Of a DNA stretch of 64,000 nt, positions 2,835-61,799 are shown piece after piece. The stretch is from contig JAUYQR010000012.1 in NCBI GenBank assembly GCA_030697175.1, forward strand, positions 59,591 through 123,590, written 5' to 3'. The translations under genes were made by a program, and so were the position numbers. Under the pieces are notes generated by a model, which was not told the origin of the DNA, did not search any database, and saw only the letters and a list, made by a program, of their open reading frames with translations. Within the stretch, counting starts at the first letter, position 1; each line of letters starts with the position of its first letter. This DNA comes from Paracoccaceae bacterium. Its GTDB lineage: Bacteria > Pseudomonadota > Alphaproteobacteria > Rhodobacterales > Rhodobacteraceae.

Positions 2835-4043
2835 ATGCACGCCACCCACGCCCAAGCCAAGGCCGCCCGCTGGGCGATTGCCGCGATGTTTTTCGCCAAC
2901 GGGTTCGTCATGGGGGCCTGGGCGCCGCAGATCCCGCTGCTGCTGCCGCGCCACGACATCACCGAAAGCACGCTGGGCCTGCTGATCCTTGTGCTTGGCC
3001 TTGGCGCGGTCGGCTCCATGCTGTTCGCGGGCCGGCTGATCAACCGCTTCGGTGGCCGCCGCGTGCTGTCGGTGTTCTCGCTGGCGCTGATTCCGGTGCT
3101 GCCGGCGGTGGTGTTTTCGCCTGACCTCGGCGCGCTGGCCCTGTTCATGGCGGTGTTCGGCGCGATGGCGGGCTGCATGGATGTGGCGATGAACAATCAG
3201 GCGGTCGACATCGAGCGCCGGCTTGACCGCGCCATCATGTCCTCATCGCACGGGTTCTGGAGCCTTGGCGGCTTTTTCGGCGGCTTTGCCGGCAGTTTCG
3301 TGATCGCGCATTGGGGGTCCGAGGTGCAGTCGCTGCTGACCGCCGCGATCACCGCCGCCATCGTCTTTGCCGCAATGCCTTTCCTTCTGCCCGACAGCCC
3401 GCGCCTCCAGCCCACTGCCGCGCAAACGGCGGCGCCGAAACAGCACCTTCTGCCGCGCGACCTTTCGGTCTGGCTGCTGGGCTTCATGGCGCTGGCCTCG
3501 ATGGTGCCGGAGGGCGCGGTGCTGGACTGGGCCGCGATCTACCTGCAGAAGGAACTGGGCTCCGACGTGTTCCGCTCGGGCCTTGCCTTTGCCTTCTTCG
3601 CGGGGGCAATGGCGATCATGCGGTTTGCCGGCGACGCCGTGCGCAACCGCTTTGGCGCGGTCCGCACGCTGCGCGCCTCGGGGCTGATCGGGGCGGCTGG
3701 CCTGATGGGCGGTGCGCTGGCGCCGGCCGACTGGATCGCCATCGTCAGCTTTGCCTTTGCGGGCCTTGGCATCGCCAACATGGTGCCGATCCTGTTTTCC
3801 GCCGCCGGCAATCACCCGCGGCTACCCTCGGCGCTGGCGATCTCGACGGTCACGATGGTCGGCTACTGCGGCATCCTCGTCGCCCCCTCGTCGATCGGCT
3901 TTGTGGCCGAGCATGTGGGGTTCAGTTCCACCTACGCGGCACTGTCGCTTTTGCTGGTCGTGGTCTCGCTGCTGGCCGGTCACACCGCCGATGCCGACCG
4001 CACCAGCGCGACACCGCTTCAGGCCGCCTCTGCCGCAAGCTGA
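2835..4043 (+). CDS. MFS transporter
   Basis: 402 aa, about 12 hydrophobic helices, GRLINRFGGRR loop motif between TM2 and TM3 typical of the major facilitator superfamily. Confidence 0.75.
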   Translation: MHATHAQAKAARWAIAAMFFANGFVMGAWAPQIPLLLPRHDITESTLGLLILVLGLGAVGSMLFAGRLINRFGGRRVLSVFSLALIPVLPAVVFSPDLGALALFMAVFGAMAGCMDVAMNNQAVDIERRLDRAIMSSSHGFWSLGGFFGGFAGSFVIAHWGSEVQSLLTAAITAAIVFAAMPFLLPDSPRLQPTAAQTAAPKQHLLPRDLSVWLLGFMALASMVPEGAVLDWAAIYLQKELGSDVFRSGLAFAFFAGAMAIMRFAGDAVRNRFGAVRTLRASGLIGAAGLMGGALAPADWIAIVSFAFAGLGIANMVPILFSAAGNHPRLPSALAISTVTMVGYCGILVAPSSIGFVAEHVGFSSTYAALSLLLVVVSLLAGHTADADRTSATPLQAASAAS

Positions 4044-39071: not shown

Positions 39072-39611
39072 TTAATTCTTTCCGCCGCCATTTCCACCAC
39101 CATTGCCACCACCATTGCCGCCCCCGTTGCCACCCCCATTGCCACCGCCGTTGCCACCGCCGTTGCCACCGCCACCACCGTTGCCGCCGCCGCCACCGTT
39201 GCCGCCACCGTTGCCGTTGCCGCCCGCCTTGCCCGCAGCGCCGGCTTTGCTGGTGCCATTGGCCTTGCCCGCGCCCGAGCGTGCCGCGGTGGTGACCAGC
39301 CGACCCATTGCAGACGTCGTCGTGACCCGCTCTCCGGTTCGTGCATTGATGATCACGCTGACGAGCGAGCCGTCACTCTTTTTCAGCACGATCCGGTAGA
39401 AAACATCGTCAGCCGCGAAGGCCCGCGCCTCGATCGGCTCGCCGCCGTTGGCTTTGGCGACCTGGTCAATCACCCGCTTCAGGCTGATGGCATTGCCGGC
39501 GGTGACGATGCCGCGCAACTCCGCGGCGTCGACCTCGCGGACGGTCGATCCCAGCACCGGCACGGTAAATGCCAGGCTCGCCACAAGCACGAGGACCGCT
39601 GTTTGCTTCAT
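39072..39611 (-). CDS. Secreted PepSY-domain protein with a C-terminal tail made only of Gly and Asn
   Basis: Signal peptide MKQTAVLVLVASLAF and a PepSY core (ISLKRVIDQV...YRIVLKKSDGSLVSVIINARTGERV). The tail is NGNGGGNGGGGGNGGGGGNGGGN(GGGN)n...GGGKN. First gene of the PepSY-RR-HK operon. Confidence 0.75.
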   Translation of the reverse strand: MKQTAVLVLVASLAFTVPVLGSTVREVDAAELRGIVTAGNAISLKRVIDQVAKANGGEPIEARAFAADDVFYRIVLKKSDGSLVSVIINARTGERVTTTSAMGRLVTTAARSGAGKANGTSKAGAAGKAGGNGNGGGNGGGGGNGGGGGNGGGNGGGNGGGNGGGNGGGNGGGNGGGKN

Positions 39612-39797: not shown

Positions 39798-40646
39798 ATG
39801 ATGATTTCTACCAAGCAACTCTTGAAAGCCTGTTCCCTGACGATCGCCCTTCTGGGGTCGGCCGCCATCGTGACCACCGTGTCGATGCCCGATGCAGCCT
39901 ATGCCAAGAATGGCAATGGCGGCGGCAATGGGAACGGCGGCGGCAATGGCGGCGGCAACGGAAATGGCAACGGCGGCGGCAACAGCGCACGGTCCGAAAG
40001 CAGCTCCAAGGCCTCCGGCGGCGGCGCTGAGGCCAAGTCGACGGCGAAAAGCGAAAAGTCCTCGGCCAAGAAATCCGGCAAGAAGAGCCTCTCGTCCCTG
40101 CTTGGCGTCAGCGCTTCTGACCTTGGCGCGCTGAATGCGGCCCACGCCAATCCCAACGCCCTGAAGAACGCGTCGCCCAATTCGCGCGTCGGCCGCATCG
40201 CTGCCTACCGCGACTCGGTTCTTGCCGGCGACGTGATTCAGGCGGATCTGGATGCCAAGGCTCTGGCGCTGGCCGACCTGCCCGAGCCAACCCGCACCGT
40301 TGCGGATATCGACACCGAACTGGCAACCCTTGATGGCACGATCTCGACCAAGACCACCGAGATCGCCGACCTTCAGGCACAGCTTGGCGGCGAAAACGAC
40401 GAAGAGATCCAGGGGCAGATCGACACCCTGAACGGCGAAATCGAAGCCGCACAACTGCAGCAGGAAGCTCTTGCTGGCGAGCGTGCGGATACCGTTGCCT
40501 ACGAAACGCTGGCCGGCGAAGTCGCCGATCTGGAACAGCAGGTCGCGGATCAGACCGCGGTCGAGCGTTCGCTTCTGGAGGCCGCCGCCAACAAGCCGGT
40601 GACCGACGAAGTGGAAGCAGCAGTCAAGATCCTGCTCGGTCTCTAA
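39798..40646 (+). CDS. Secreted protein: Gly/Asn tract, Ser/Lys-rich region, conserved LGALNAAHANPNAL...SRVGRIAAY block, acidic coiled coil
   Basis: Signal peptide with AYA cleavage site. NGNGGGNGNGGGNGGGNGNGNGGGN directly follows the signal. C-terminal half is heptad-like and Glu/Gln/Ala/Leu-rich. Followed by a terminator hairpin. Confidence 0.7.
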   Translation: MMISTKQLLKACSLTIALLGSAAIVTTVSMPDAAYAKNGNGGGNGNGGGNGGGNGNGNGGGNSARSESSSKASGGGAEAKSTAKSEKSSAKKSGKKSLSSLLGVSASDLGALNAAHANPNALKNASPNSRVGRIAAYRDSVLAGDVIQADLDAKALALADLPEPTRTVADIDTELATLDGTISTKTTEIADLQAQLGGENDEEIQGQIDTLNGEIEAAQLQQEALAGERADTVAYETLAGEVADLEQQVADQTAVERSLLEAAANKPVTDEVEAAVKILLGL

Positions 40647-40700: not shown

Positions 40701-40756
40701 CTTGTCGTCTTGCGGCAGGCCAAATGAACGGCAGGCTACAAGAACGGCAGGCCAAA

Positions 40757-40784
40757 TGAAAAAGGCCACCCGTCGGGTGGCCTT
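40757..40784 (-). terminator. Rho-independent terminator of the 40808-41080 ORF
   Basis: aaggccaccc-gtc-gggtggcctt. On the minus strand it is followed by TTTTTC. Confidence 0.65.
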
Positions 40785-43299: not shown

Positions 43300-44019
43300 C
43301 TAGCCCGTCAGGTCGGCCATGACAGATCCCGCAGCCTCGCCGTCACCGCGTTCGATGGCGCGCACCAGTGCGTCGTATCGGGCGGCGTGATGCGCGGCCA
43401 GGCCCTCGGCGGGGGGATCGCGGTCGGCGGTCAGGCGAGCCACGACGTTGACTGCGACGCCAAACTCCAGAATGGCAGACGAGGCCCGCAGAAACGGGTT
43501 GCCGGAGGCTTCGGTGACGACACGGTGGATCTCGAACTCGGCCATCGCGAACGGTTCGGGCTGGTGCGCCATCACCGTTCGCTGGTTCAGCCAATAGTGC
43601 AAAAGCCGGACATGCTCGGCCTCGCGGTGAACGGCGGCAAGCCGCGCCGCCTGCACCTCCAGGCTTTGCCGCACCGCACGGAAGGCCACCAGGAACGCCG
43701 GCGACGGGCCGCTTTCCAGTTTCCACGACAGGATCTGGCGGTCAAACAGGTTCCAGCGCGATTGCGGCAGGACGCGGGTGCCGACCTTGGCACGCGCCTC
43801 GACCAGCCCCTTTGCCTCCAGCGTCTTCAGCGCCTCGCGCAGCACGGTGCGCGACACACCGAAACGGTCCATCATCTCGGCATCGCCCGGCAGGCTTGAT
43901 CCCACCGGCATGTTGCCCGAAACGATGGCGCGGCCAACCTCGTTGATCACGTAGGAATGGAAGTTCCGCGCCACTTGCCGCCCGGAGAGCGTTCGGATCA
44001 GGCTCCCGGGTTCGCTCAT
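43300..44019 (-). CDS. GntR/FadR-family transcriptional regulator
   Basis: Winged helix-turn-helix (LPGDAEMMDRFGVSRTVLREALKTLEAKGLV) plus an all-helical FCD-type domain. Confidence 0.85.
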   Translation of the reverse strand: MSEPGSLIRTLSGRQVARNFHSYVINEVGRAIVSGNMPVGSSLPGDAEMMDRFGVSRTVLREALKTLEAKGLVEARAKVGTRVLPQSRWNLFDRQILSWKLESGPSPAFLVAFRAVRQSLEVQAARLAAVHREAEHVRLLHYWLNQRTVMAHQPEPFAMAEFEIHRVVTEASGNPFLRASSAILEFGVAVNVVARLTADRDPPAEGLAAHHAARYDALVRAIERGDGEAAGSVMADLTG

Positions 44020-44037
44020 ATCAATTGGTCCACGGCC

Positions 44038-44997
44038 TCAGGTTCGTCGCGATCCGGCCCGGAACACGAGCCGTTGCAGCAAGATGAACATAAACAAAAG
44101 CACGCCGACCACAATCTTGGTCCACCAACTGGACAGGGTTCCGTCAAAGACGATGTAAGTCTGCACCAGACCCTGCAGCATCACCCCGATGAAGGTGCCC
44201 GCGATGAAGCCGTAGCCGCCGGTCAAGAGCGTGCCGCCGATGACGACGGCGGCGATGGCGTCCAGTTCCACCCCCAGCGCGTTCAGCGAATATCCCGCCG
44301 AGGTATAAAGCGAAAACACCACCCCGGCGAGCCCCGCCAGCGCCGAGGACAGCGCGTAGATCATGATCGTCGTGCGTGCGACCGGCACGCCCATCAGCGC
44401 GGCCGAGGTTTCGGACCCGCCAAGCGCATAGACGTTCGACCCGAACCGGGTGCGGTGTGCCAGCAATATCGCCCCGGCAAACACGACCAGCATGATGATC
44501 CCGATCACGGTCAGCCGACCGCCGCCCGGCAACAGGATGTAGCTTTTTGACACCGTCGAATAGAACTCGTGCTGGATGCCGATGCTGTCGGACGACAGCA
44601 CCGAGGCGCCGCCACGGGCAAGGAACATGCCCGCCAGCGTGACGATGAAGCTGGGCACCTTGAGGTAGTGGATCGCGGCCCCCATCACGGCGCCGAAACT
44701 GCCGGCCACGCCAAGCGCGATGGCAAAGGCCAAAAGCGGGTGCAGATCAAGCCACATGATCAAGACGGCGATCAGGACGGTGGTGAACCCGATCACCGCG
44801 CCCACCGACAGGTCGATCCCGCCCGACAGGATCACGAAGGTCATCCCGACCGCCGCAATCCCGAGAAAGGCGTTGTCTGTCAGAAAGTTGCCCAGAACGC
44901 GGGTGGACATCATGGCCGGGTGCTGCAGCACCGCCAGAAGGAACGCAAAGAGGAAGATCAGGGTGGTTGCCACAAGCGGGCGCAGGCTGCGGTTCAT
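44038..44997 (-). CDS. yjfF: Galactofuranose-type ABC permease (YjfF-like)
   Basis: Start trimmed to MNRSLRPL. RbsC-type permease, last gene of a ytfQRT-yjfF-ordered operon. Confidence 0.75.
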   Translation of the reverse strand: MNRSLRPLVATTLIFLFAFLLAVLQHPAMMSTRVLGNFLTDNAFLGIAAVGMTFVILSGGIDLSVGAVIGFTTVLIAVLIMWLDLHPLLAFAIALGVAGSFGAVMGAAIHYLKVPSFIVTLAGMFLARGGASVLSSDSIGIQHEFYSTVSKSYILLPGGGRLTVIGIIMLVVFAGAILLAHRTRFGSNVYALGGSETSAALMGVPVARTTIMIYALSSALAGLAGVVFSLYTSAGYSLNALGVELDAIAAVVIGGTLLTGGYGFIAGTFIGVMLQGLVQTYIVFDGTLSSWWTKIVVGVLLFMFILLQRLVFRAGSRRT

Positions 44998-46034
44998 TTG
45001 GGTGTTCCGGGTAGGCGGCGCAAAAGCCGTGCCGACAGGGGCGATTGCAGGACAAGAATGACGATGATCACCGCCGATTTGACGACGAGGTTGAACTCTG
45101 GCGAAAAGCCCGAAATCAGGATGCCGGTGTTCATCGCCTGAATGATCATCGCGCCGAGGACGGCCATCGGGATCGAAAACCGCCCGCCCATCAGCGAGGT
45201 GCCGCCGATCACCACCGCCAGGATCGCGTCCAGCTCCAGCCAGAGGCCGGCGTTGTTGGCGTCCGCACCCCGGATGTCGCCGGCGACGATCAGTCCGGCT
45301 ATCGCGGCGCAAAACCCCGCAAAGGTGTAGACGATGAGCAAAAGCGCGTTGGCCGAAAGCCCCGCAAACCGCGCGGCCGAGCGGTTGACGCCCACCGCCT
45401 CGATCAGCAGGCCCAGCGCGGTGCGGCGCACGATCAGCGTGGCCGCGACCATCAGGACCAGCGCGATGATCACCGGCATCGGCAGGCCCAGAAACGATCC
45501 GGTCCCGATGAAGATCAGCAGCGGGTCGGAAAACGTGACGATGTAGCCTTCGGTCACCAACTGCGCGAGGCCGCGTCCCGCCACCATCAGAACCAGTGTT
45601 GCGATGATCGGCTGGATATCCAGAACCGTCACCAGAATTCCGTTCCACAGGCCGCACAGAAGCCCGGTGCCAAGCGCCACCAGCACCGCCACCGGCGCCG
45701 CCACACCCGAGGTGACCAGCACCGCCGCCACCGCCCCGCTGATCGCCATCACCGCGCCGACCGAAAGATCGACACCCTTCGTGGCAATCACCGCCGTCAT
45801 CCCGATGGCAAGGATCGCGACCGGCGCGCCCCGGTTCAACACGTCGATCAGGCTGCCGAACAGCCGCCCGTCCTGCCAGGTGATGGTGAAGAACCCCGGA
45901 AACAGCGCCCAGTTGACCAAAAGCACCGCCACCAGCGCAATGACCTGCGGCCGAACCAGAAGGCTGGTGATCGGCCGCGATGGCGCCCGAGGCGGCTGGG
46001 TCGTGGGCCGCAGATCAACGGTAGGACGGGTCAC
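44994..46034 (-). CDS. ytfT: Galactofuranose-type ABC permease (YtfT-like)
   Basis: 346 aa RbsC-type permease. Overlaps both neighbours by 4 nt. Confidence 0.75.
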   Translation of the reverse strand: MTRPTVDLRPTTQPPRAPSRPITSLLVRPQVIALVAVLLVNWALFPGFFTITWQDGRLFGSLIDVLNRGAPVAILAIGMTAVIATKGVDLSVGAVMAISGAVAAVLVTSGVAAPVAVLVALGTGLLCGLWNGILVTVLDIQPIIATLVLMVAGRGLAQLVTEGYIVTFSDPLLIFIGTGSFLGLPMPVIIALVLMVAATLIVRRTALGLLIEAVGVNRSAARFAGLSANALLLIVYTFAGFCAAIAGLIVAGDIRGADANNAGLWLELDAILAVVIGGTSLMGGRFSIPMAVLGAMIIQAMNTGILISGFSPEFNLVVKSAVIIVILVLQSPLSARLLRRLPGTPK

Positions 46035-47551
46035 GGGCGCACCTCTGCACGGGTTCCGGCAATGGATTGGACGATGACATCGGGCGCGATATCGTCGCCG
46101 TGCAGTTCGGCAACCATCTCGCGGTCGCGCATCACGACGATGCGGTTGGAATAGGCGACAACTTCATCCAGTTCGGACGAGATGACGAACAGCGCCAGCC
46201 CCTCTTCGCGCAAGCGGTTGATCGTGCGAACGATTTCGGCATGGGCGCCAACGTCGATGCCGCGCGTCGGCTCGTCCAGGATCAGGAAGGTCGGGTCGAT
46301 CGCCAGCCAGCGCGCCAGGATCACCTTCTGCTGGTTGCCGCCCGACAACAGCTTTACCGGCATGTCATGGTCTGCCGCGCGGATATCCAGCGCCTCGGCA
46401 TAGCGCCCCGAAAGCTCGATCTGGTCGTCTCGGTTCAGCGCCTTGAACCAGCCAAGCTTGGCCTGCAGCGCGATGATGATGTTTTCGCGCACCGACAGAT
46501 CGCCGAAGATGCCGTCCAGTTTGCGGTCCTCGGGGCAAAAGCCAAAGCCCGCCGCGACAGCCTGCGCGGGGTTGCGGATGGTGACGGGCTGGCCATCGAC
46601 CGTGATCGTGCCACCTTCGGCCGCATCGACGCCGAACATCAGCCGTGCCACCTCGGTCCTGCCGGAGCCGAGAAGCCCTGCCACGCCAACCACCTCGCCC
46701 TCGTGAACGGCAAGGTCGAAGGGCGTCATGCCCTTGCGGCCGAGGCCCTTGAATTCCACCCGGACAGCGCCCTGCGGCCCCCCGGAAAGCGATGTGGGAT
46801 GGTGTTCGAAGGCCAGATCCTTGCCCAGCATCATGCGAACCACGTCGGTGGTGTTCACCGCCGACAAGGGCTGCGTCGCCACCTTGCGACCGTTGCGCAG
46901 GATCGTGACGCGGTCGGCAAGCGCAAAGACCTGGTCAAGGAAATGCGTGATGAAGATGATTGCCAGGCCCTTGGCCTTCAGCCCGCGCACCACGTCGAAC
47001 AGGCGCTCCACCTCGTTGCGGTCAAGACTGGCGGTCGGCTCGTCCAGGACCAGCACCTTGCCCGACAGTTCCACCGCCCGCGCGATGGCGACGATCTGCT
47101 GCACGGCCACCGAAAATTCCGAAAGCTCGGCGCGCACGTCGAGATCAAGGCCGTAGCGGGCCAGCAGCGCCCGCGCCTGCCCCTCGATCTCGCGCCGCTT
47201 GACCAGGCCGAACCGGGTGGGCTGGCGACCAAGGAACAGGTTTTCCGCGACCGAGCGGTTCGGCAACAGGTTCACCTCCTGATACACCGTGCCGATGCCG
47301 TAGGTCTGCCCGTGCAACGGGTCGCGCAGCGTGATCGGCTGACCCTCCAGCAGCAAGTCACCGCCGTCGGGCTGGTAGGCACCGGTCAGGATCTTGATCA
47401 GCGTCGATTTGCCCGCGCCATTTTCGCCCAGAAGCGCATGCACCTCGCCTGGAAGGGCGGTGAAATCCACGGCATCCAGCGCCCGGTGCTGGCCAAAGAC
47501 CTTGACGATCCCGCGCGCCTCCAGAACCGGCTTCTGCCCCGTCTCGATCAT
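46031..47551 (-). CDS. ytfR: Sugar ABC ATPase, duplicated cassette (YtfR-like)
   Basis: Start trimmed to MIETGQKPVLEARGIVKVFG. First cassette has Walker A GENGAGKST; a second, partly degenerate cassette carries the signature LSGGNQQK. Confidence 0.85.
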   Translation of the reverse strand: MIETGQKPVLEARGIVKVFGQHRALDAVDFTALPGEVHALLGENGAGKSTLIKILTGAYQPDGGDLLLEGQPITLRDPLHGQTYGIGTVYQEVNLLPNRSVAENLFLGRQPTRFGLVKRREIEGQARALLARYGLDLDVRAELSEFSVAVQQIVAIARAVELSGKVLVLDEPTASLDRNEVERLFDVVRGLKAKGLAIIFITHFLDQVFALADRVTILRNGRKVATQPLSAVNTTDVVRMMLGKDLAFEHHPTSLSGGPQGAVRVEFKGLGRKGMTPFDLAVHEGEVVGVAGLLGSGRTEVARLMFGVDAAEGGTITVDGQPVTIRNPAQAVAAGFGFCPEDRKLDGIFGDLSVRENIIIALQAKLGWFKALNRDDQIELSGRYAEALDIRAADHDMPVKLLSGGNQQKVILARWLAIDPTFLILDEPTRGIDVGAHAEIVRTINRLREEGLALFVISSELDEVVAYSNRIVVMRDREMVAELHGDDIAPDVIVQSIAGTRAEVRP

Positions 47552-47660
47552 CCCCCGACCTCCCCTTCGTGTCTTCAAGTCTCCGCTCTTCCAGCGGATA
47601 AAGCAATTCCGCCGGGCAAAGGCGCGACCCCTGGCCCGGCGGCACCTCGGCGGAGGAAAC

Positions 47661-48632
47661 CTAGTATCCGAGGCCTTTGCGGCGGTCATATTCGCCCTGC
47701 GGATCATCCGCCGGGGTGTAGAGCCTGGATTCAGTGATGATGAACTTTTCGGGGGCGGTGCCCGCGTTCAGATAGGCATCTAGCGCGTCGAAGGCGGGGC
47801 CTGCCATGTTGGGCGTCAGCTCCACTGTTGCGTTCGCTTCACCGGCAACCATCGCCGCGAAGATATCCGGAACCGCGTCGATCGACACGACAAGGATATC
47901 CGTGCCCGGCTTCAGGCCCGCATCCTTGATCGCCTGGATCGCACCCACCGCCATGTCGTCGTTGTGGGCATAGACCGCGCAGATGTTCTTGCCGCCGTCT
48001 TCGGCCTTGATGAAGCCTTCCATCACTTCCTTGCCCTTCGACCGGGTGAAATCGCCGGTCTGGCTGCGGGTGATGGTCAGGTTCGCCTTGCCCGCCAGCG
48101 CTTCTTCAAAGCCCTGCTTGCGGTTGATCGCAGGCGACGAGCCTACGGTGCCTTGCAGTTCGACCACGTTGCACTGCTTGTCGCCGACGGCGCCGACCAG
48201 CCATTCGCCAGCGACGCGGCCTTCCTTGACCTGATCCGACGCGACCGAGGTCAGATACAGGTCTTCCGGGGCTTCGATGCCGCGGTCCAGAAGCACGACG
48301 GGAATGTTTGCCTCCTTCGCTTCGGTCAGGACTTCTTCCCAGCCGGTGGCCACAACCGGGGCCACCAGAATGGCGTCAACGCCTTGCGCGATGAAGCCAC
48401 GGATCGCCTTGATCTGGTTTTCCTGCTTTTGCTGGGCATCCGCGAACTTGAGGTCAATGCCCCGTTCCGCAGCGACCGCCTTGGTCACGCTTGTCTCGGC
48501 CGCGCGCCAGCCGGACTCTGATCCGATCTGCGAAAATCCGATGACTTTGCCTTGCAGACCTTCGGCGTAGGCCGCCGACATCAACAAGCCAGCCAGTCCC
48601 GCGCCAAGCGCGAGAGTATTGAAAATCTTCAT
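47661..48632 (-). CDS. ytfQ: Periplasmic galactofuranose-binding protein (YtfQ-like)
   Basis: Start trimmed to MKIFNTLALGAG. The long block GFSQIGSESGWRAAETSVTKAVAAERGIDLKFADAQQKQENQIKAIRGFIAQGVDAILVAPVVATGWEEVL is near-collinear with E. coli YtfQ as I recall it. Confidence 0.85.
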   Translation of the reverse strand: MKIFNTLALGAGLAGLLMSAAYAEGLQGKVIGFSQIGSESGWRAAETSVTKAVAAERGIDLKFADAQQKQENQIKAIRGFIAQGVDAILVAPVVATGWEEVLTEAKEANIPVVLLDRGIEAPEDLYLTSVASDQVKEGRVAGEWLVGAVGDKQCNVVELQGTVGSSPAINRKQGFEEALAGKANLTITRSQTGDFTRSKGKEVMEGFIKAEDGGKNICAVYAHNDDMAVGAIQAIKDAGLKPGTDILVVSIDAVPDIFAAMVAGEANATVELTPNMAGPAFDALDAYLNAGTAPEKFIITESRLYTPADDPQGEYDRRKGLGY

Positions 48633-48850
48633 TTCTTCCTCCCAGTGGAAATCTTGGCCACTCTCCTCAGGTGGCTGTGGCGACGTTATCAAAAGTATTA
48701 CTATATGCAAGAAATCCTTCACTTCGTCCGCCTTGACCCAAAGCTGCTGAACAATGCCTGCGCAGCGAAAACGGCCCGTTCCCAAGAATACCCGTGGTCT
48801 TTCATCAGCCTGCGGGACGCTGCAGAGCGGCGAGCCAAAGGCCGTGGGGT

Positions 48851-49879
48851 TCAGCGCGGCACTGGCGTGAAGTCGAACCGCATGACGTGCCGATAGGTCT
48901 CGCCCGGTGCCAGACGGGCCGAGGGGAACTGCGGGTTGTTCGGCGAATCGGGGAAGCGCTGGGTTTCAGCCGCAAAGCCGGCAAACCGCGCGTAGCGCTG
49001 GCCAGCCTTGCCGGGTGTGTCGGCAAAATGCGCGCCGGTATAAAGCTGCACGCCGGGTTCGGTGGTCGCCAGCGTGAAGCCCCTGCCCGACACCGGATCG
49101 ACCGCCCGCAGGCAGGGCCGCAGGCCGTCAGCCGCCACCGGGGACGACAGGCAGAGGTTGTGATCAAACCCGTCCGCGCCTGGCACCAGCGCACCGATCG
49201 GGCGCAGGCTGCGAAACTCGAACGCGGTGCCGGCGACCGAGCGCACTTCGCCGGTCGGGATCAGGCGATCATCGACCGGCAGGTAGAACCCGGCATCGAC
49301 GGACAAAAGCTGCCCCATCACATCGCCAGAGCCTTGCCCGGCAAGGTTGAAATAGGCGTGGTTGACCATGTTGACCACGGTGGTCGCGTCTGTCGCGGCG
49401 GTCATTTCGATCATCAGGCCAGCGCCGTCGATGCGGTAGGTGGTGCGCATCGTGACCGCGCCGGGATAGCCCATCTCGCCATCGGGCGATGCGGCGGCGA
49501 AGGTGACATGCTGCGCTGACCGGCTGTCGATGGACCAGATCTTGCGATCAAACCCTTCGCGCCCGCCATGCAAATGCTGGCTGCCCTCGTTCTGATCGAC
49601 CTGAACCTGACGGCCATCCAGCGCGAACCGCCCACCCGCAATCCGGTTGGAGTAGCGCCCGCAGGTGGCACCCAGATATCCGCCCTGGGTGCGCCAGTGC
49701 TGCAACGTGTCATGGCCCAGCACGATGTCGGCGAGGGTGCCGTCGCGGTCGGGCACCCAAAGCTCGGCAAGTCGCGCGCCATAGGTCAGCAGCATGACGC
49801 GCAGGCCACCGGCGCCAGACAGGGTCACGGCTTCGACATCGCGGCCGTCGATCTGCCCGATGATCGTGAGATCAGCCAT
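48851..49879 (-). CDS. galM: Aldose 1-epimerase (mutarotase)
   Basis: 342 aa with the GalM pattern (GR.ANRI, HLHGG, NHAYFNL, ETQ.FPDS). Confidence 0.85.
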   Translation of the reverse strand: MADLTIIGQIDGRDVEAVTLSGAGGLRVMLLTYGARLAELWVPDRDGTLADIVLGHDTLQHWRTQGGYLGATCGRYSNRIAGGRFALDGRQVQVDQNEGSQHLHGGREGFDRKIWSIDSRSAQHVTFAAASPDGEMGYPGAVTMRTTYRIDGAGLMIEMTAATDATTVVNMVNHAYFNLAGQGSGDVMGQLLSVDAGFYLPVDDRLIPTGEVRSVAGTAFEFRSLRPIGALVPGADGFDHNLCLSSPVAADGLRPCLRAVDPVSGRGFTLATTEPGVQLYTGAHFADTPGKAGQRYARFAGFAAETQRFPDSPNNPQFPSARLAPGETYRHVMRFDFTPVPR

Positions 49880-49900
49880 CTGCGGCCCCTTTTCGCGCCA

Positions 49901-50066
49901 CTCTGCCCAGTCTTACGCTTCAGCCCAGTCCTACGCCTCAGCCCAGTCTTACGCTTCTGCCCAGTCTTTCGCTTCAGCCCAGTCCTACGCCTCAGCCCAG
50001 TCTTACGCTTCAGCCCAGTCTTACGCTTCAGCCCAGTCTTACGCCTCAACCCAGTCCTGCGGCAGC
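49901..50066 (-). repeat. 18-bp tandem repeat, 8 full units plus a partial. Each unit is five codons plus a stop, in frame with and derived from the 3' end of the upstream dehydrogenase gene
   Basis: Minus strand reads GACTGGGTTGAGGCGTAA (native DWVEA-stop) followed by 7 further units: GACTGGGCTGAAGCGTAA three times, GACTGGGCTGAGGCGTAG twice, and one each ending GCGAAA (no stop) and with GCA for GCT. Then a partial unit. Confidence 0.95.
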
Positions 50067-51550
50067 AGGGCCGCCGGCATGTTCTGATAGGCCACCGGTC
50101 GCAACCAGCGGCGGATCGACAGGGTTCCCACCGAGGTGGCGCCGAAGTTGGTCGAGGCCGGGTAAGGGCCGCCATGCACCTGCGCATCGACCACCTCGAC
50201 CCCGGTCGGAAAACCGTTGGCCAGAACCCGGCCTGCCTTGCGCTCCAGGATCGGCAGCAATGCGCGGCCAAGGTCAAGATCGGCATCATCAAGATGCAGC
50301 GTGCAGGTCAACTGGCCTTGCAGGCTGCGCGCGATGTCCTGCATTTCCGCCGCGTGACGCACGCGAATGATCAGGCCAAGCGGGCCGAACACCTCTTCGG
50401 CAAGGGTGTGGTCGGCCAGCCAGTCCGACCCCGCCACTTCAAACAGATAGGGCGTGGCGTTGCGCCGGTCGCAGGTCGTGGTCAGCAGGGCACGCACGCC
50501 GTGGCCGGCGGCAACCCGGTCGCGCCCGGCTCGGAAGGCCTCGGCAATCCCGTCGGTCAGCATGGTCTGCGCGGCAACAGCCGCGACCGCCGTCTTGGCG
50601 GTATCCACAAACGCATCCGCCTCGGGGCCGTCGATCACCACGGCAATGCCGGGATTGGTGCAGAACTGCCCCGCGCCAAGCGTCAGCGAGGCGGCCCAGC
50701 CCTTGGCAATCGCGTCGCCCCGTGCGGCCACGGCGGCGGGCAACAGGAACATCGGGTTCACCGACCCCAGCTCACCAAAGAACGGGATCGGTTCCGGCCG
50801 TGCGGCGCACAGGTTGAACAGCGCGCGCCCCCCGGCAAGCGAGCCGGTGAAGCCCACCGCCTTGATCAGCGGATGCTGCACCAAGGCCTCGCCCACGTCG
50901 CGCTTGCCGCCCTGTACCAGACTGAACGTGCCCGCAGGCATCCCGCAGGCCTTGATCGCCGCGTCAATCGCCTGCGCCACGATCTCGCCGGTGCCGGGGT
51001 GGGCGGAGTGGCCCTTGACCACCACCGGGCACCCGGCCGCCAGCGCCGAGGCCGTGTCGCCCCCGGCGACCGAAAACGCGAGCGGAAAGTTCGACGCGCC
51101 GAACACCGCGACCGGGCCGACGGGCCGCTGGATCAGCTTCAGGTCCGGGCGTGGCGCGGGCTGCCGGTCAGGCAGCGCCGCGTCATGCCGCCGGTCCAGC
51201 CAGCCGTCCTTCAGGATATGCGCGGCGAACAGGCGCAACTGGCTCGTCGTGCGCCCCCGCTCGCCTTCCAGCCGTGCCGCAGGCAAGCCGGTTTCCTGGG
51301 TGCCGATCTCGGTGATCTCGGCGCCGCGCGCGTCGATCTCGTCCGCGATGCGGGTCAGGAACGCTGCCCGCTCGGCCCGCGAGGTGGCCGCATAGGCCGG
51401 AAACGCCGCCTCTGCCGCCTCGCACGCGGCGGCGACATGCGCTGGCGTGCCAACCGAAAAGTCATGCGACGGCCCATGCGCGGGCGACGAGGCGAAGGTC
51501 TGGGCATTGCCTACCCATTCGCCCGCGATCAGGTGTTTTCCGGTCAGCAT
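50039..51550 (-). CDS. Aldehyde dehydrogenase (2,5-dioxovalerate / alpha-ketoglutarate semialdehyde dehydrogenase-like)
   Basis: Start trimmed to MLTGKHLIAGEWV. Blocks FGASNFPLAFS..GGDTASALAAGCPVVVKGH and FTGS..GG are typical of KGSADH-type ALDHs. Sits adjacent to gguC. Confidence 0.8.
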   Translation of the reverse strand: MLTGKHLIAGEWVGNAQTFASSPAHGPSHDFSVGTPAHVAAACEAAEAAFPAYAATSRAERAAFLTRIADEIDARGAEITEIGTQETGLPAARLEGERGRTTSQLRLFAAHILKDGWLDRRHDAALPDRQPAPRPDLKLIQRPVGPVAVFGASNFPLAFSVAGGDTASALAAGCPVVVKGHSAHPGTGEIVAQAIDAAIKACGMPAGTFSLVQGGKRDVGEALVQHPLIKAVGFTGSLAGGRALFNLCAARPEPIPFFGELGSVNPMFLLPAAVAARGDAIAKGWAASLTLGAGQFCTNPGIAVVIDGPEADAFVDTAKTAVAAVAAQTMLTDGIAEAFRAGRDRVAAGHGVRALLTTTCDRRNATPYLFEVAGSDWLADHTLAEEVFGPLGLIIRVRHAAEMQDIARSLQGQLTCTLHLDDADLDLGRALLPILERKAGRVLANGFPTGVEVVDAQVHGGPYPASTNFGATSVGTLSIRRWLRPVAYQNMPAALLPQDWVEA

Positions 51551-51570
51551 GAAGGCCTCGATTTCGGTGG

Positions 51571-52539
51571 TCAAAGTGGCAGGACGGACGTCGCGCCCTT
51601 GGTCTTGGGGGCAAACGACAGCGGGTTGCGCAGCGGTTGGCCGAAGGCGTCGGCCTCGATCTCGAACACGTCGCCGGGTTCGGTCTTGATGCCATCGGCA
51701 TAGGACAGCGTTGCGGTGCCGAAGAAATGCACGTGCAGATCGCCCGGCTGACAGAAGATGCCATACTTGAAATGGTGATGCTCCAGGTTCGCCAGCGTGT
51801 GCGACATGTTCGCCTCGCCGCTGAGGAACGGCTTTTCCCACAAGACCGCGCCACCGCGCAGGATGCGGCTGGTGCCGCGCACATCTGCGGGCAACTCGCC
51901 CACCAGAATTTCCGGCCCGTAAGAGGCGACGCGCAGCTTGGAATGGGCCAGCCAGAGGTAATTCACCCGTTCGGTGACATGGTCGGAAAACTCGTTGCCC
52001 AAGGCCCAGCCGATCCGGTAGGGCGCGCCGTTCGGGCCGATCAGGTAGACGCCCGCAACCTCCGGCTCTTCGCCGCCATCCTCGGCGCAGGCCGGGGCTT
52101 CAAGGGCAGCACCGGGGGCGACGGCGGCATGGCCGTTGCCCTTGTAGAACCATTCGGGCTGCGCCCCGACCTCGCCCCTGGCCGGACGCCCGGCCTCCAG
52201 CCCCATGCGGAACATCTTCATGCTGTCGGTCAGCGTCTCGGCCCCTTCCAGCTTGGCGTGCATCGCATCGCGGGCCGAGGCCGACCCGAGGTGCGTCAGG
52301 CCCGTGCCCGTCAGATGCAGGTGCGCCGGATCGGGGTGGCTGACCGGCAATTCGAAGGTGGCGCGGCTCAGGTCCACCGCCTCACCCAGACCGCGGCGCG
52401 CCACTTCTTCGGCCAGCCCATGCCCCGCCGCAATCGCCGCCGTTGCCAGTTCATAGACCGACGCCGTGCCTTGCACCCGCCGCGCCTCGGCCCCCGTCCG
52501 GGCCACGACGCCCGCGCCCTTGACCGTCGATAGATGCAT
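51571..52539 (-). CDS. gguC: GguC / AraD1-family FAH-fold protein (2-keto-3-deoxy-pentonate dehydratase-like)
   Basis: Start trimmed to MHLSTVKG. Occupies the position after gguB as in the Agrobacterium chvE-gguABC locus. PEWFYKGNG and NEFSDH motifs. Confidence 0.7.
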   Translation of the reverse strand: MHLSTVKGAGVVARTGAEARRVQGTASVYELATAAIAAGHGLAEEVARRGLGEAVDLSRATFELPVSHPDPAHLHLTGTGLTHLGSASARDAMHAKLEGAETLTDSMKMFRMGLEAGRPARGEVGAQPEWFYKGNGHAAVAPGAALEAPACAEDGGEEPEVAGVYLIGPNGAPYRIGWALGNEFSDHVTERVNYLWLAHSKLRVASYGPEILVGELPADVRGTSRILRGGAVLWEKPFLSGEANMSHTLANLEHHHFKYGIFCQPGDLHVHFFGTATLSYADGIKTEPGDVFEIEADAFGQPLRNPLSFAPKTKGATSVLPL

Positions 52540-52547
52540 GTCCTGCC

Positions 52548-53720
52548 TCACTTGTTCTTGTTGTAGACGTCGAAGATCACCGCAGCCAGCAGCACCAGCC
52601 CCTTGATCATCTGCTGGTAATCGATGCCGACGCCAAGGATCGACATGCCCATGTTCATCACGCCCATGATCAAGGCACCGATCACCACGCCGACGATCTT
52701 GCCCGACCCGCCCGCCATCGCCGCGCCGCCGATGAACACGGCGGCGATGGCGTCAAGCTCGAACCCGGTCCCGGCCTTTGGCGTGGCCGAATTCAGGCGC
52801 GCGGTCACCATCATGCCCGCCAGCGCGGCAAGCACGCCCATGTTCACAAAGCAGAAGAACACCAGCCGTTCGGTGCGGATGCCCGACAGCTTGGCCGCCT
52901 TTTCATTGCCGCCGGTGGCATAGATGCGCCGCCCCTGCACGGTGTTTTCGGTGAAGAAGGCGTAAAGCACGATCAGCACCGTCAGCACGATCAGCACGTT
53001 CGGCAGCCCCCGGAACGAGGCAAGCTGATAGCCCACGAACGCCGTCGCCGCCGCAATCACCGCCGTGCGGCCCCAGAAAAGGCCTGCCGGTTCCGGCGTC
53101 ACGCCAAATTCCGCATCACGCGCCCGCGCCCGCACGCCGATCCAGATCACCGCGCCAATCGCCAGCGCCGTGATGATCAGCGTCAGCCCGTGCGGCTTCA
53201 TCAGCCCGGTCGGATCGGGAATGAACCCCGACGACATCGCCTGAAACGCCTTCGGGAACGGCCCGATGTTCTGGCCGCCCAGCATCAGCATCGTGGCGCC
53301 GCGGAACACCATCATCCCCGCCAGCGTCACGATGAACGACGGGATGCGCCAGAACGCCACCCAATAGCCCTGCGCCGCCCCGATCGCGCCGCCGACGATC
53401 AGCGTCAGCACGATCACCACCGGCACCGGCAGGTCCAGATCCACCGTCAGCCACGCCGCCACAGCCCCGGTGAACGCCGCAACCGACCCCACCGACAGGT
53501 CGATATGCCCCGACACGATGATCAACAGCATCCCCAGCGCGAGGATGATGACATGCCCGTTCTGCAGGAAGATGTTGGTGATGTTCGGCGCCTGCAGGAA
53601 CATCGGCTTGCCCTGCGCCGACACCAGGATCGAAAACAGGACCACGATGGCGACCAGCGCCAGCAGCATCCCGTTTTCCCGCAGGTGTCCCCCCAGTGCG
53701 CTTTGCTTTGGTTCCGACAT
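52548..53720 (-). CDS. gguB: Multiple-monosaccharide ABC permease
   Basis: 390 aa, MSEPKQSALGGHLRENGMLLAL N-terminus, XylH/GguB-type permease. Confidence 0.85.
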   Translation of the reverse strand: MSEPKQSALGGHLRENGMLLALVAIVVLFSILVSAQGKPMFLQAPNITNIFLQNGHVIILALGMLLIIVSGHIDLSVGSVAAFTGAVAAWLTVDLDLPVPVVIVLTLIVGGAIGAAQGYWVAFWRIPSFIVTLAGMMVFRGATMLMLGGQNIGPFPKAFQAMSSGFIPDPTGLMKPHGLTLIITALAIGAVIWIGVRARARDAEFGVTPEPAGLFWGRTAVIAAATAFVGYQLASFRGLPNVLIVLTVLIVLYAFFTENTVQGRRIYATGGNEKAAKLSGIRTERLVFFCFVNMGVLAALAGMMVTARLNSATPKAGTGFELDAIAAVFIGGAAMAGGSGKIVGVVIGALIMGVMNMGMSILGVGIDYQQMIKGLVLLAAVIFDVYNKNK

Positions 53721-55250
53721 TCAGGCCACCCTCCCCACATCCTTGACGATCAGCGCCATGATCTTTTCCTGACTGGCCTCGCCCCGCGTCAGTTCCCCGA
53801 CGATCCGGCCTTCGTTCATCACGTAGATCCGGTCGCACATCCCCAGCAGCTCCGGCATTTCCGAGCTGATCATCAGGATGCCGCGGCCCTGTTCGGCCAG
53901 CTCCTTCATGATCGTGTAGATCTCGAACTTCGCGCCCACATCAATGCCGCGCGTCGGTTCATCAAGGATCAGAAGCGCCGGGTCGGTGAACAGCCACTTC
54001 GACAGCACCACCTTCTGCTGGTTGCCGCCCGACAGGTTTACCACCTTTTGCTGCACGCCGGGCGTGCGGATCGCCAGTTGCTTGCGATACCCCTCCGCCA
54101 CCTGCGCCTCGCGCCGCTTGTCCAGGATCGAGCGCGTCGCGATGCCGGCAAGGTTGGCAAGGCTGATGTTGCGCAGGATCGGTTCGTCAAGGATCAGGCC
54201 CAGCGCCTTGCGGTCCTCGGTCACGTAGGAAATCCCGGCCGCAATCGCCTTTGACACGGTCGACACGTCCACCGGCTTGCCGTGCATCCTGACGCTGCCC
54301 TGATGGCCCTTGCCGTAGCTGCGCCCGAAGATCGACATGGCAAGTTCGGTGCGCCCGGTGCCCATCAGCCCGGCGATGCCGACGATCTCGCCTTTGCGGA
54401 TCGTCATCGACACGTTCTTGATCATCTGGCGCCCGGTCTGTTCGGGGTGCCAGCACGACCAGCCGTCTACCTCGAACAACACCTCGCCGGGGTGGCTTTC
54501 CCGTTCAGGGTAGCGGTGCGCCATGTCGCGGCCCACCATGTCGCGGATGATCCGGTCTTCGGATATTTCGGCCTTGGTCAGGGTGGAGACGGCGGCACCA
54601 TCGCGGATCACGGTGATCCGGTCGGCCACGCGGGAAATCTCGTTCAGCTTGTGGCTGATCATGATCTGCGTGACGCCCTGCGCCTTCAACTCCAGCATCA
54701 GGTCCAGCAAACGGTCCGCATCCGCCTCCTGCAAGGCGGCGGTCGGTTCGTCGAGGATCAACAGCCGCACGTTCTTCGACAGCGCCTTGGCGATCTCGAT
54801 CAACTGCTGCTTGCCGACACCAAGCTTGCCGACCACCGCGCTTGGCGGCTCGTTCAGGCCCACGCGGCGCAAGAGAGCGCCCGTTTTCTGAAACGCCAGC
54901 GGCCACGAGATCACGCCTTTCGACGCCACCTCGTTGCCCATGAACAGGTTCTCGGCGATCGACAGCAAAGGGATCAGCGCAAGTTCCTGATGGATGATGA
55001 TGATGCCCTTTTCCTCGCTGTCGTGGATGCGCCGGTTGCGCAGGGGCTGGCCGTCATAGATGATTTCGCCGTCGAAGCTGCCATGCGGATATACCCCCGA
55101 CAGCACCTTCATCAGCGTCGATTTGCCGGCACCGTTTTCGCCGCAGATCGCATGGATTTCTCCGGCCTCAACCGTCAGGCTGACCCGGTCAAGCGCCTTC
55201 ACGCCCGGGAAGACCATCGAGATCTCCCGCATTTCCAGAAGTGTCGACAT
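53721..55250 (-). CDS. gguA: Multiple-monosaccharide ABC ATPase (duplicated cassette)
   Basis: 509 aa. Walker A GENGAGKST in the first cassette and the signature LSGGNQQK in the second. Abuts the gguB start. Confidence 0.88.
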   Translation of the reverse strand: MSTLLEMREISMVFPGVKALDRVSLTVEAGEIHAICGENGAGKSTLMKVLSGVYPHGSFDGEIIYDGQPLRNRRIHDSEEKGIIIIHQELALIPLLSIAENLFMGNEVASKGVISWPLAFQKTGALLRRVGLNEPPSAVVGKLGVGKQQLIEIAKALSKNVRLLILDEPTAALQEADADRLLDLMLELKAQGVTQIMISHKLNEISRVADRITVIRDGAAVSTLTKAEISEDRIIRDMVGRDMAHRYPERESHPGEVLFEVDGWSCWHPEQTGRQMIKNVSMTIRKGEIVGIAGLMGTGRTELAMSIFGRSYGKGHQGSVRMHGKPVDVSTVSKAIAAGISYVTEDRKALGLILDEPILRNISLANLAGIATRSILDKRREAQVAEGYRKQLAIRTPGVQQKVVNLSGGNQQKVVLSKWLFTDPALLILDEPTRGIDVGAKFEIYTIMKELAEQGRGILMISSEMPELLGMCDRIYVMNEGRIVGELTRGEASQEKIMALIVKDVGRVA

Positions 55251-55312
55251 CGCCCCTCCCGCAAGGAACCTGCCTGCGCGACAATGGCGCAGGCAGGCCC
55301 GTCCAGATCAGC

Positions 55313-56383
55313 TTACTTCAGCTGGTCAGCGGTATAGTAGCCCGAACCGACGAGGATTTCTTCGTAGTTCGACAGGTTCACCGACACCGGCTCCAACAGA
55401 TACGACGGCACGACCTTGACGCCGTTGTTGTAGGTTTCGGTGTCGTTGATTTCCGGCTCGCCACCGGCAAGCACGGCGTCGACCATCTTCACGGTCACCT
55501 TGGCCAGTTCGCGGGTGTCCTTGAACACGGTCGAATACTGCTCGCCCGCGATCATCGACTTTACCGACGGGATTTCAGCATCCTGCCCGGTGACGATCGG
55601 CATCTTCATGTCGCCCGAACCGTAGCCGACGCCCTTCAGCGACGACAGGATGCCGATGGAAAGCCCGTCATATGGCGACAACGCGCCATGCAACTGCTTG
55701 TCGCCGTAGTTCGACGACAGCAGGTTGTCCATCCGCGCCTGCGCCACCGCGCCATCCCAGCGCAGCGTGCCGACCACGTCCATGCCGGTCTGACCCGACG
55801 GAATGGCGATATCGCCCGCGTCGATCATCGGCTGCAGCACGCTCATCGCGCCGTCGTAGAAGAAGAACGCGTTGTTGTCGTCGGGCGAGCCGCCGAACAG
55901 TTCCACATTCCACGGCTTCACGTCGCCAAAGCGCTCCTTCAGGCCGGCAACCAGCGATTCCGCCTGCTGCACGCCGACCTTGAAATTGTCGAAGGTCGCG
56001 TAATAGTCGACCGAGCCGCTGTCACGGATCAGGCGGTCATAGGCGATGATCTTGATGCCTTGCGCGGCGGCGTTGTCCAGCGCGTTCGACAGGGTGGTGC
56101 CGTCGATGGCCGCGATCACCAGCGCCTTGACGCCCGAGGTGATCATGTTCTCGATCTGGCTCAACTGCGTCGGGATATCATCCTCGGCATATTGCAGGTC
56201 GACGGTGTAGCCAGCCTCGGTGAACGCCTTCACCATCGACTCGCCGTCCGAAATCCAGCGCGACGAGGATTTGGTCGGCATCGCGATACCGACGGCTCCC
56301 TTGTCTTGGGCGAATGCGGGCAGCGCCGACAGGGCGGCGGTCGTACCGGCAAGGGCGATAAGCCCGCGGCGGGTCAAATTCAT
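55313..56383 (-). CDS. chvE: Multiple-sugar-binding periplasmic protein ChvE
   Basis: Start trimmed to [13 protein letters not shown]. Long blocks ([91 protein letters not shown]) are nearly identical to Agrobacterium ChvE as I recall it. Confidence 0.9.
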
Positions 56384-56520
56384 CTGTTTCCTCCCGATGA
56401 AATCTGGTGTTCCGCACTGAGCACACCTTGACGTCCGGTGCTCACGTACGCCGCGCAGATTGCGTCGAAGACATATATCTGTCAATTGTCGGTTACGATG
56501 CCAGACATGACGGAAGTGCC

Positions 56521-60468: not shown

Positions 60469-60973
60469 ATGACACCCTGAGTTGTAAACGTCGGTCACTC
60501 TTCCTGTGCAGGAACACAAAGACAAACGCAAGTCGCGGTGCCGGTCAACGACCGATGCCGACACTTCGGCGGGCAAACGCCTCTCCCTCGCTGGCCGCAT
60601 CCCTCACCCGCGTGGGGCGAGCGTCACCTTGCGTCCGCAGGCCCCAGGATCGGTGCAACATGGTCCGTGGCAACAGTATTTGTCGGCCTTTAGCCTCGGT
60701 CCACAGCCCCCGTTGCCGGAAACGAATCGCATTATGGCGCTGGCTCGGCCTTTTGGCGTCATCAACAAGACCCAATCTCACGGTGAGTTAACGATCGCTT
60801 AACCACGCACAATCTTGGTCGCGGTCAGCGACAATGCATTGTCTTTTAGGACAGGTGCCAACGATCATCGTAGCGAGACCGAAGTCTGGATGGCATTAAC
60901 CTCTACATGGCTTCCAGCGCTGCCAGACGGCGCTCAAGCAGTCGAGTTGGTCTTTAACGAGTGTAGGGTTGAA

Positions 60974-61711
60974 ATGAAAAACGTGTTCCTGGGCGCAGCC
61001 CTTGCTGTCTGCGCGTCTGCTTCGGTAACGAGTGCAAGTCCCTTGTTTGGGTGCGAGCTAAAGAAGATCGTCGGGTCGAACGCCTACTATCGATCCGACG
61101 TGAGCTGCCAGTTCGGGGCCGGTGTGAAAGATGCCCGTGTCAAGGCATCCACACCGGCAGATCCCGAAGTGGAGACCCCGGCCGAAGAAACGCCGGTCAA
61201 GGTCATCGCCCCGGTCGAAACGCCCGATGAACCCGAGGTCGTGGACAACGAACCCCCGGTCACGGCAAATGACCCGGTCTACGAGGCACCCCAGCCCGCA
61301 GCCGAAGATGATGTATCGCAACCCGACGCTCCGATCGTGGACGAACAGGAAGACCCGGCCCCGACCAATCCGCCTGTCGTGGAAGAGCCCGCTCCCACCG
61401 ACGAGGGTGTTGACGAGACAAAGCCGGACGCGCCGGCCCCCGAGGTCGAGAAACCCGTGAAGGACGCCGATCACGACAAGGGCCACGGCAACGACGCGGA
61501 TGGCGTGGACGACGACAATCCGGCACAAACCAAAGGCGATGTGGGTCAAAACCCCGACAAGGATCCCGGCGAAGCTGACGCTGAAAAGCCGGCGCCCGAA
61601 AAAGACATGAAAGACGTGAAAGACGAAAAAGACGTGAAAGACGTGAAAGACGTGAAAGACGAAAAAGACAATAAGGACAATAAGGACAACAAGGACAAGA
61701 AGGACAAGTAA
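60974..61711 (+). CDS. Secreted, highly acidic Pro/Glu/Asp-rich protein with a C-terminal (x-K-D)12 repeat
   Basis: Start trimmed to MKNVFLGAALAVCASASVTSA (signal peptide). Two Cys in the N-terminal segment, then PE/PD-rich disorder, then DMKDVKDEKDVKDVKDVKDEKDNKDNKDNKDKKDK. Confidence 0.6.
   Translation: MKNVFLGAALAVCASASVTSASPLFGCELKKIVGSNAYYRSDVSCQFGAGVKDARVKASTPADPEVETPAEETPVKVIAPVETPDEPEVVDNEPPVTANDPVYEAPQPAAEDDVSQPDAPIVDEQEDPAPTNPPVVEEPAPTDEGVDETKPDAPAPEVEKPVKDADHDKGHGNDADGVDDDNPAQTKGDVGQNPDKDPGEADAEKPAPEKDMKDVKDEKDVKDVKDVKDEKDNKDNKDNKDKKDK
61601..61708 (+). repeat. 9-bp tandem coding repeat (gtgaaagac / gaaaaagac / aataaggac variants)
   Basis: About 12 consecutive 9-bp units read directly from the sequence at the 3' end of the acidic-protein gene. 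Confidence 0.85.
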
Positions 61712-61799
61712 GGCCGCGACCGGGATTCCGATCAGACCAACATCAATCCCGGTAAAATCCTCCCAGAAACTGGTTTCAGAAATTCATTTCAACAATATT

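Follow-up and report, generated by a model that had tools for sequence, protein, structure and literature searches.

Contingency repeats switch genes on and off by frameshift or by a change in promoter spacing, and Borg tandem repeats are reportedly coding repeats that give proteins low-complexity tails. The closest described counterparts of the element considered here are found among the variable-number tandem repeats (VNTRs) of Yersinia pestis, where a survey of 88 VNTRs found 16 that overlap the end of an ORF, 10 of them with the stop codon in the repeated motif (PMC3689786). The stop-containing motifs include units of 17–19 bp, such as N0171 (18 bp, at siroheme synthase) and ms05 (17 bp), and the authors of the survey judged stop-overlapping VNTRs to be of little effect on the ORF (PMC3689786). 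A second related group is that of the MIRUs, which are dispersed, apparently mobile units of ∼40–100 bp present at many loci, and the short ORF in each of them is translationally coupled (−4 nt) to the gene downstream (PMC12548453). Translational coupling drops sharply with added distance, and less than 20 nt suffices to produce the drop (PMC12548453).

Here we analyse an array of 18-nt units that lies between the genes for an aldehyde dehydrogenase (ALDH) and the aldose 1-epimerase GalM in a 64-kb stretch of DNA, which we refer to as the window. An earlier, sequence-only reading of this DNA had stated that no bacterial element of such a form was described. Stop-containing VNTRs are, in fact, tabulated for Y. 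pestis (PMC3689786), and the array belongs to the already catalogued class of VNTRs that overlap an ORF stop codon. In common with the Y. pestis cases, a stop-containing unit of 17–19 nt is repeated head-to-tail downstream of a gene, the copy number is polymorphic, the motif is specific to the locus, and little effect on the protein is to be expected. Unlike them, the array is found in a freshwater alphaproteobacterium, Tabrizicola, sits inside an operon between what appear to be formerly coupled cistrons, and has a 54-nt higher-order block, a clear polarity of decay and one natural allele that extends the protein.

The other known systems are less similar. MIRUs also form variable-number tandem units between the genes of an operon, with stops in the frame of the upstream gene, but they are dispersed, whereas the unit described here comes from the gene's own end, was found at no second place in the 64-kb window or the collections searched, and lacks a start codon from which a relay ORF could begin. 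Phase-variable contingency loci resemble the array in that slippage alters the number of repeats among close relatives; in contrast to such loci, there is neither a frame shift nor a promoter-like site here, and the array cannot switch either reading frame because its 18-nt unit, a multiple of three, sits after the stop. The Borg repeats have a parallel in the CAA alleles described below, in which repeat sequence becomes coding and a repeated DWAEA is added at the C-terminus, but in the window only the first unit is translated.

Our favoured explanation, which we hold to be very probable, is that the array is a locus-specific minisatellite of Tabrizicola, born by a tandem duplication of the ALDH gene end that included the stop codon, and since resized by slippage or unequal recombination.

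The array reiterates the end of the ALDH gene

The ALDH gene (50039..51550, minus strand) encodes a protein of 503 aa that ends in LLPQDWVEA before a TAA stop and was classed, from its ORF and translation, as an aldehyde dehydrogenase (NADP+) of the KGSADH/2,5-dioxovalerate dehydrogenase type. Its matches to named ALDH families of NCBIfam all fall below the curated cut-offs; the protein is identical to WP_305570081.1 of NCBI (Tabrizicola sp.), the record of which bears the name aldehyde dehydrogenase (NADP+). Downstream on the same strand lies galM (48851..49879, ATG at 49879-49877), the 342-aa product of which matches PF01263 and NF008277 (285 bits, cut-off 240). Both belong to a minus-strand sugar operon with the order sugar ABC transporter, AraD1/GguC, ALDH, galM, YtfQ-type binding protein with a second ABC transporter, and GntR regulator. 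The array sits within a long sugar-catabolic cluster (43300-56485, minus strand) with two ABC uptake systems, the upstream one of the multiple-sugar type and the downstream one with a YtfQ-type galactofuranose binding protein, and this cluster is consistent with an oxidative pentose/galactose pathway.

Nine 18-nt units make up the array (50056-49895, minus strand), the translated ALDH end being followed by seven full copies and one degenerate copy. Tandem Repeats Finder (TRF) reports a period of 18 with 8.4 copies (score 248), and also a period of 54 with 2.9 copies (95% matches). A search of the window with the 18-mer, allowing up to three mismatches, returned eight matches, all inside the array, where 0.02 would be expected by chance. 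The ALDH stop codon is itself part of the motif: unit 1 (U1, 50056-50039, GACTGGGTTGAGGCGTAA) encodes the ALDH C-terminus DWVEA together with the TAA stop, and is the only unit translated in the window. Reading on towards galM along the minus strand, U2 (50038-50021) and U3 (50020-50003) are both GACTGGGCTGAAGCGTAA, U4 (50002-49985) ends in GAGGCGTAG, U5 (49984-49967) ends in GAAGCGAAA with AAA as its sixth codon, U6 (49966-49949) is GACTGGGCAGAAGCGTAA, U7 (49948-49931) is the same as U4, U8 (49930-49913) is the same as U2, and the degenerate, galM-proximal U9 (49912-49895) is GACTGGGCAGAGTGGCGC. The sixth codons of the full untranslated units U2 to U8 (49913..50038, minus strand) are TAA, TAA, TAG, AAA, TAA, TAG and TAA, an in-frame stop thus being present in six of the seven. 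The description of the units up to the galM ATG in the sequence-only reading is accurate to the base.

Two larger repeats are superimposed on this pattern, U4-U6 and U7-U9 (49895..50002, minus strand), which are evident from the 54-nt TRF period and from the comparison of alleles and are the product of a three-unit block duplication. Between U9 and galM is a 15-nt block, GAAAAGGGGCCGCAG (49894-49880, minus strand), in which GGGG, 6 nt before the ATG, resembles a Shine-Dalgarno (SD) motif and may act as one. Compared by eye with the 18-nt unit, of which it might be a decayed copy, this block has only 5 of 18 ungapped matches, and a gapped match looks over-fitted.

As for the remaining frames, the unit read in its +2 frame (ACT GGG CTG AAG CGT AAG) contains no stop, and for this reason a 155-aa ORF with a TTG start (49825-50292, minus strand) crosses the entire array into galM; we regard this ORF as probably spurious. 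In the third frame, every consensus-type unit includes a TGA.

Independent read sets support the structure of the array

The window corresponds, in reverse complement, to part of JAUXYK010000031.1 (MAG GCA_030694435.1, Tabrizicola sp.), and identical ALDH and GalM proteins are also encoded in a second NCBI MAG, on a contig of 164.6 kb. Given that the source is a MAG, we considered whether the array, or its length, had been made by short-read mis-assembly. An identical GalM is found in three independent Logan k=31 short-read assemblies (SRR13727523, SRR13727538 and SRR22388094), two of which also have an identical ALDH. None of these k=31 assemblies crosses the window allele; all three break inside the array, at +42 and +111, and these are the first and last branch points predicted by a de Bruijn analysis of the window sequence. 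Because contigs from three independent read sets end exactly where predicted, we conclude that the array structure is real. The k=31 data further support the identity of U2 and U3, and the existence of both the TAG>AAA-unit and the TAG>TAA-unit contexts. This k-mer evidence backs the structure but cannot fix the unit number; by our own reasoning, the k-mer set is also compatible with extra 54-nt blocks. The exact count of nine is that of the MAG assembly only.

Together with the matching break points, the presence of the array in at least nine independent assemblies or read sets, some with branch-free alleles, makes an assembly artefact scarcely credible, and confines the uncertainty to the precise count of nine. 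The locus is also a caution for work with short-read assemblies, which break here or may give a wrong number of units.

Unit number differs in 18-nt steps between close relatives

Members of the 90%-identity protein clusters yielded seven further alleles, making eight with that of the window. Across these eight alleles, all from independent assemblies, the unit number is 4, 6 or 9 and the differences in length are always multiples of 18 nt. The sequence-only reading had offered, as one meaning of the array, a slippage-prone VNTR that alters the spacing between ALDH and galM, and had pointed to copy number in related strains or long-read assemblies as informative; the 18-nt steps fit that proposal. 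The nearest allele, L174 (ERR3478701), is 100% nt-identical to the window in the 3' part of ALDH and 99.5% in galM, yet has six units against nine in the window, and can be described as the window array minus U5-U7 (54 nt) with one substitution in U3. The other alleles belong to a sister lineage with flanks of ∼91–94% nt identity to the window. Among them, L168 (a 501-kb ENA contig) has four units, L169 and L170 (ENA, Logan) have six, L172 and L173 (Logan) have six with other internal variants, and L171 (Logan, ∼91% nt identity in galM) has at least six, its contig beginning within the array. The fully traversed alleles L174, L168, L169 and L172 are free of k=31 branches, and their contigs are thus unambiguous.

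The alleles of the sister lineage have degenerate galM-proximal units in common (GGCTGGGCTGCAGCGTAG, GGCCGGGCTGCAGCGAAA, CATTGGGCAGAGTAGCGC), and variation in unit number and sequence is found on the ALDH-proximal side. The galM-proximal units are the older ones and the ALDH-proximal units young. The sister-lineage counterpart of U9, CATTGGGCAGAGTAGCGC, resembles the DWAE-stop gene end of the sister taxa L008 and L011, as does the last unit, (GAC/CAT) TGG GCA GAG TAG. Such a likeness suggests that the ancestral ALDH stop may have lain 18 nt before galM. Beyond the last unit, the 15-nt SD block is unchanged in all eight alleles. The AAA unit (U5) is common to the window and the sister lineage, while the corresponding unit in the nearest allele, L174, has TAA; the AAA may have been inherited from a common ancestor of both lineages or have arisen more than once.

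Four alleles of the sister lineage, L169, L170, L172 and L173, carry CAA in place of the first TAA stop, so that ALDH continues into unit 2 and gains a C-terminal extension of one unit. The resulting protein has 509 aa, six residues more than that of the window, and ends in QDWAEAQDWAEA (L169:2378-2413; L172:1160-1195; L173; L170:1-33). The sequence-only reading had envisaged (DWAEA)n tails appended by partial read-through of stacked stops: an extended ALDH does exist, but it stems from the TAA>CAA mutation and not from read-through.

Sister taxa share the operon but not the array

ALDH served as the query for fetching loci, 80 of them in species-representative genomes and another 80 in metagenome contigs. 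In 13 sister taxa of the Rhodobacter/Tabrizicola group, galM directly follows ALDH in the same synteny; none of the 13 has the array, and the distance from the ALDH stop to the galM start is −1 to 21 nt. The ALDH proteins of the L008-L014 group are 87–91% identical in amino acids over the whole protein. Before the stop, the sister-taxon proteins end in QDWAE, QDWA, QDWNA, QDWAH and similar, the C-terminal residues varying among relatives between AE, A, NA, AH, AN and AS. With galM starting −1 to 21 nt after the stop, no additional conserved in-frame stop was found in the orthologues.

The sequence-only reading had suggested a search of the genome for the 18-mer. Neither the rest of the 64-kb window nor 162 of the 174 fetched loci contain the unit. 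The exact pattern of two adjacent units gave no matches in JGI metagenome contigs, and a scan of those contigs with the ALDH protein returned only relatives without the array. Viral contigs likewise gave no matches to the unit, and nothing therefore points to a mobile or phage origin. The array is thus restricted to a single lineage.

A comparable repeat is present in an ALDH orthologue of another lineage (L141:3490-3545; protein ending LPVDLR), where the gene's own 3' end plus TGA is repeated 2.7 times with a period of 19 nt (GTGGATTTGCGCTGAAGCG). We conclude that this is an independent origin of stop-spanning reiteration. Its 19-nt period places the copies out of frame, and conservation of frame is accordingly no rule for such repeats. 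A degenerate duplicate of the gene's 3' end was also observed in L021, after position 4006.

These comparisons bear on the idea that the units form a stack of back-up stops, catching ribosomes that read through or permitting regulated, (DWAEA)n-extended isoforms of ALDH. Retention of the in-frame stop in most of the full downstream units of the window would suit such a role, as would the existence of the ALDH with six additional residues where the first stop is CAA. A single back-up stop would suffice, however, several units and alleles have lost the stop (AAA, CAA) or have it displaced, and the orthologues have no such stack. The C-terminal residues of ALDH are not conserved among relatives, the extension seen in nature arises by mutation, and in the analogous L141 repeat the copies are out of frame. 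We therefore think a role in back-up termination or programmed read-through very unlikely.

Variation among the units shows no sign of constraint

The variants between units, being mostly silent, had been taken in the sequence-only reading as a pattern not expected from drift. The window units differ at five positions only: position 8 (C/T, minority base in U1, Ala/Val), position 9 (T/A, minority base in U6 and U9, silent), position 12 (A/G, minority base in U1, U4, U7 and U9, silent), position 16 (T/A, minority base in U5, stop to Lys) and position 18 (A/G, minority base in U4 and U7, stop to stop). Three silent variants out of five, against an expectation of 10 in 54, give P = 0.047, or 0.08–0.11 with a transition bias (kappa) of 2–4, and the excess is not significant. 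The recurrence of variants within the window is accounted for by the 54-nt block duplication. When alleles are compared, D>G, W>R, E>A, D>H and stop>K changes (codons GGC, CGG, GCA, AAA and CAT) appear in the untranslated units downstream, and the changes in copies are mostly non-silent. The lone amino-acid difference, Val, sits in unit 1, which is the only window unit under protein-level selection. Selection on silent sites is rejected on the count of variable sites and the comparison of alleles, and the argument against drift falls with it.

Much the same applies to the arrangement of the units. Because 18 is a multiple of three, the in-frame stops, the boundaries that coincide with codons and the in-frame galM ATG, to which meaning had also been attached, are automatic by-products of the period.

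Searches for another function

The RNA fold of the array is not more stable than that of shuffled sequences (z = −1.43). No Rfam family matches the array, the sole match lying outside it (E = 0.64, 12.8 bits), and a scan for promoters and terminators found no site resembling either in or beside the array. By direct reading, ATG, GTG and TTG are absent from all frames of units 2-9, the sole start-like codon being a TTG in the +2 frame of unit 1. The units follow the ALDH stop and end before the galM start. The lack of start codons in units 2-9 means that there is no relay ORF of the MIRU kind.

The proposal that the unit is a motif bound by a regulator, on RNA as the sequence-only reading had it or on DNA, and reiterated as in iterons or an operator array, finds some encouragement in a conserved core, GACTGGGCTGA, at regular 18-nt spacing. 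Set against this are mutations of the core in the older units (GGCCGGGC, CATTGG), the confinement of the unit to this one place within the 64-kb window and the collections searched, the results for Rfam and fold given above, and the sister taxa, which share both the operon and its regulators and have no array. Binding sites of this kind seem to us extremely improbable.

A probable, nearly neutral origin and its likely consequences for the operon

The array would have begun with a tandem duplication of the last 15–18 nt of the ALDH gene, stop included. Such a duplication, since it contains the stop, leaves the protein unchanged and is nearly neutral. Growth and shrinkage would then have occurred by single units or three-unit blocks, and the pattern suggests replication slippage or unequal recombination as the mechanism, with old copies decaying. 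As the first in-frame stop ends the protein, any further copies are spacer between the cistrons, untranslated and almost hidden from selection, which explains their persistence, their decay towards galM and the differences in number from one close relative to another. Should the first stop be hit by a point mutation, exactly one unit would be added to ALDH, as is seen in the CAA alleles of the sister lineage.

Growth of the array would have widened an ancestral tight junction between the ALDH stop and the galM start to 69–159 nt. With this widening, coupling of galM to ALDH by termination and reinitiation was presumably lost, leaving galM to rely on its own SD block. From the spacing of −1 to 21 nt in the sister taxa and the published decay of coupling with distance, we infer that galM is uncoupled from ALDH termination and initiates from its own conserved SD.

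Tandem arrays delete easily. The retention of this one in two lineages with flanks ∼91–94% nt-identical, without ever being fully deleted, speaks against a neutral VNTR to some extent; retention is compatible with neutrality, and also with weak selection for a spacer. One may accordingly ask whether unit number is itself selected, setting the ALDH:GalM ratio through distance, lost coupling or mRNA stability as a heritable, reversible rheostat. Such tuning would agree with the difference in copy number between the near-identical strains of the window and L174, with retention in two lineages, with tight coupling in the sister taxa and with the influence of spacing on coupling (PMC12548453). Against it, coupling is already gone beyond a few tens of nucleotides, and 69 versus 159 nt should matter little; the unit sequences are free to decay and contain neither structure nor motif; all other relatives with the same operon do without the array; and there is no on/off logic of the type known from contingency loci. 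We consider a rheostat of this description unlikely. We are similarly doubtful of its more general form, in which selection keeps the array as a slippage-adjustable spacer that uncouples galM and tunes the GalM:ALDH ratio or mRNA half-life, and which serves in addition as a reservoir of C-terminal DWAEA extensions, within reach of one mutation of the first stop.

The array gives no indication of a new regulatory mechanism. It is of interest as a clean natural example of how a stop-spanning tandem duplication, shielded from selection, becomes a minisatellite, of how an array may pull apart two previously coupled cistrons, and of how one repeat unit is brought into a protein by a single mutation in a stop codon. 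Practical uses are limited, with strain typing in Tabrizicola a possible one.

Other tandem repeats in the window

Short tandem repeats are fairly abundant in the 64-kb window. At 61601-61713 (plus strand), within ORF 60815-61711, two adjoining 9-bp arrays, AAAGACGTG (7.7 copies) and GACAATAAG (5.1 copies), code for KDMKDVKDEKDVKDVKDVKDEKDNKDNKDNKDKKDK, which forms the C-terminal tail of an acidic 298-aa ORF rich in Pro, Glu and Asp, and the repeat reaches the stop codon. An intergenic array of three 16–17-bp copies, CGGCAGGCCAAATGAA, lies at 40713-40760 (plus strand), downstream of ORF 39798-40646, and is directly followed by a GC-rich hairpin, GGCCACCCGTCGGGTGGCC, that resembles a terminator stem. 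ORF 39798-40646 itself opens with a signal-like segment, after which comes NGNGGGNGNGGGNGGGNGNGNGGGN, and there is a second array in the neighbouring region. Gly/Asn-rich coding tandem repeats with periods of 6, 12, 18 and 36 are found at 39082-39233 and 39909-39987.
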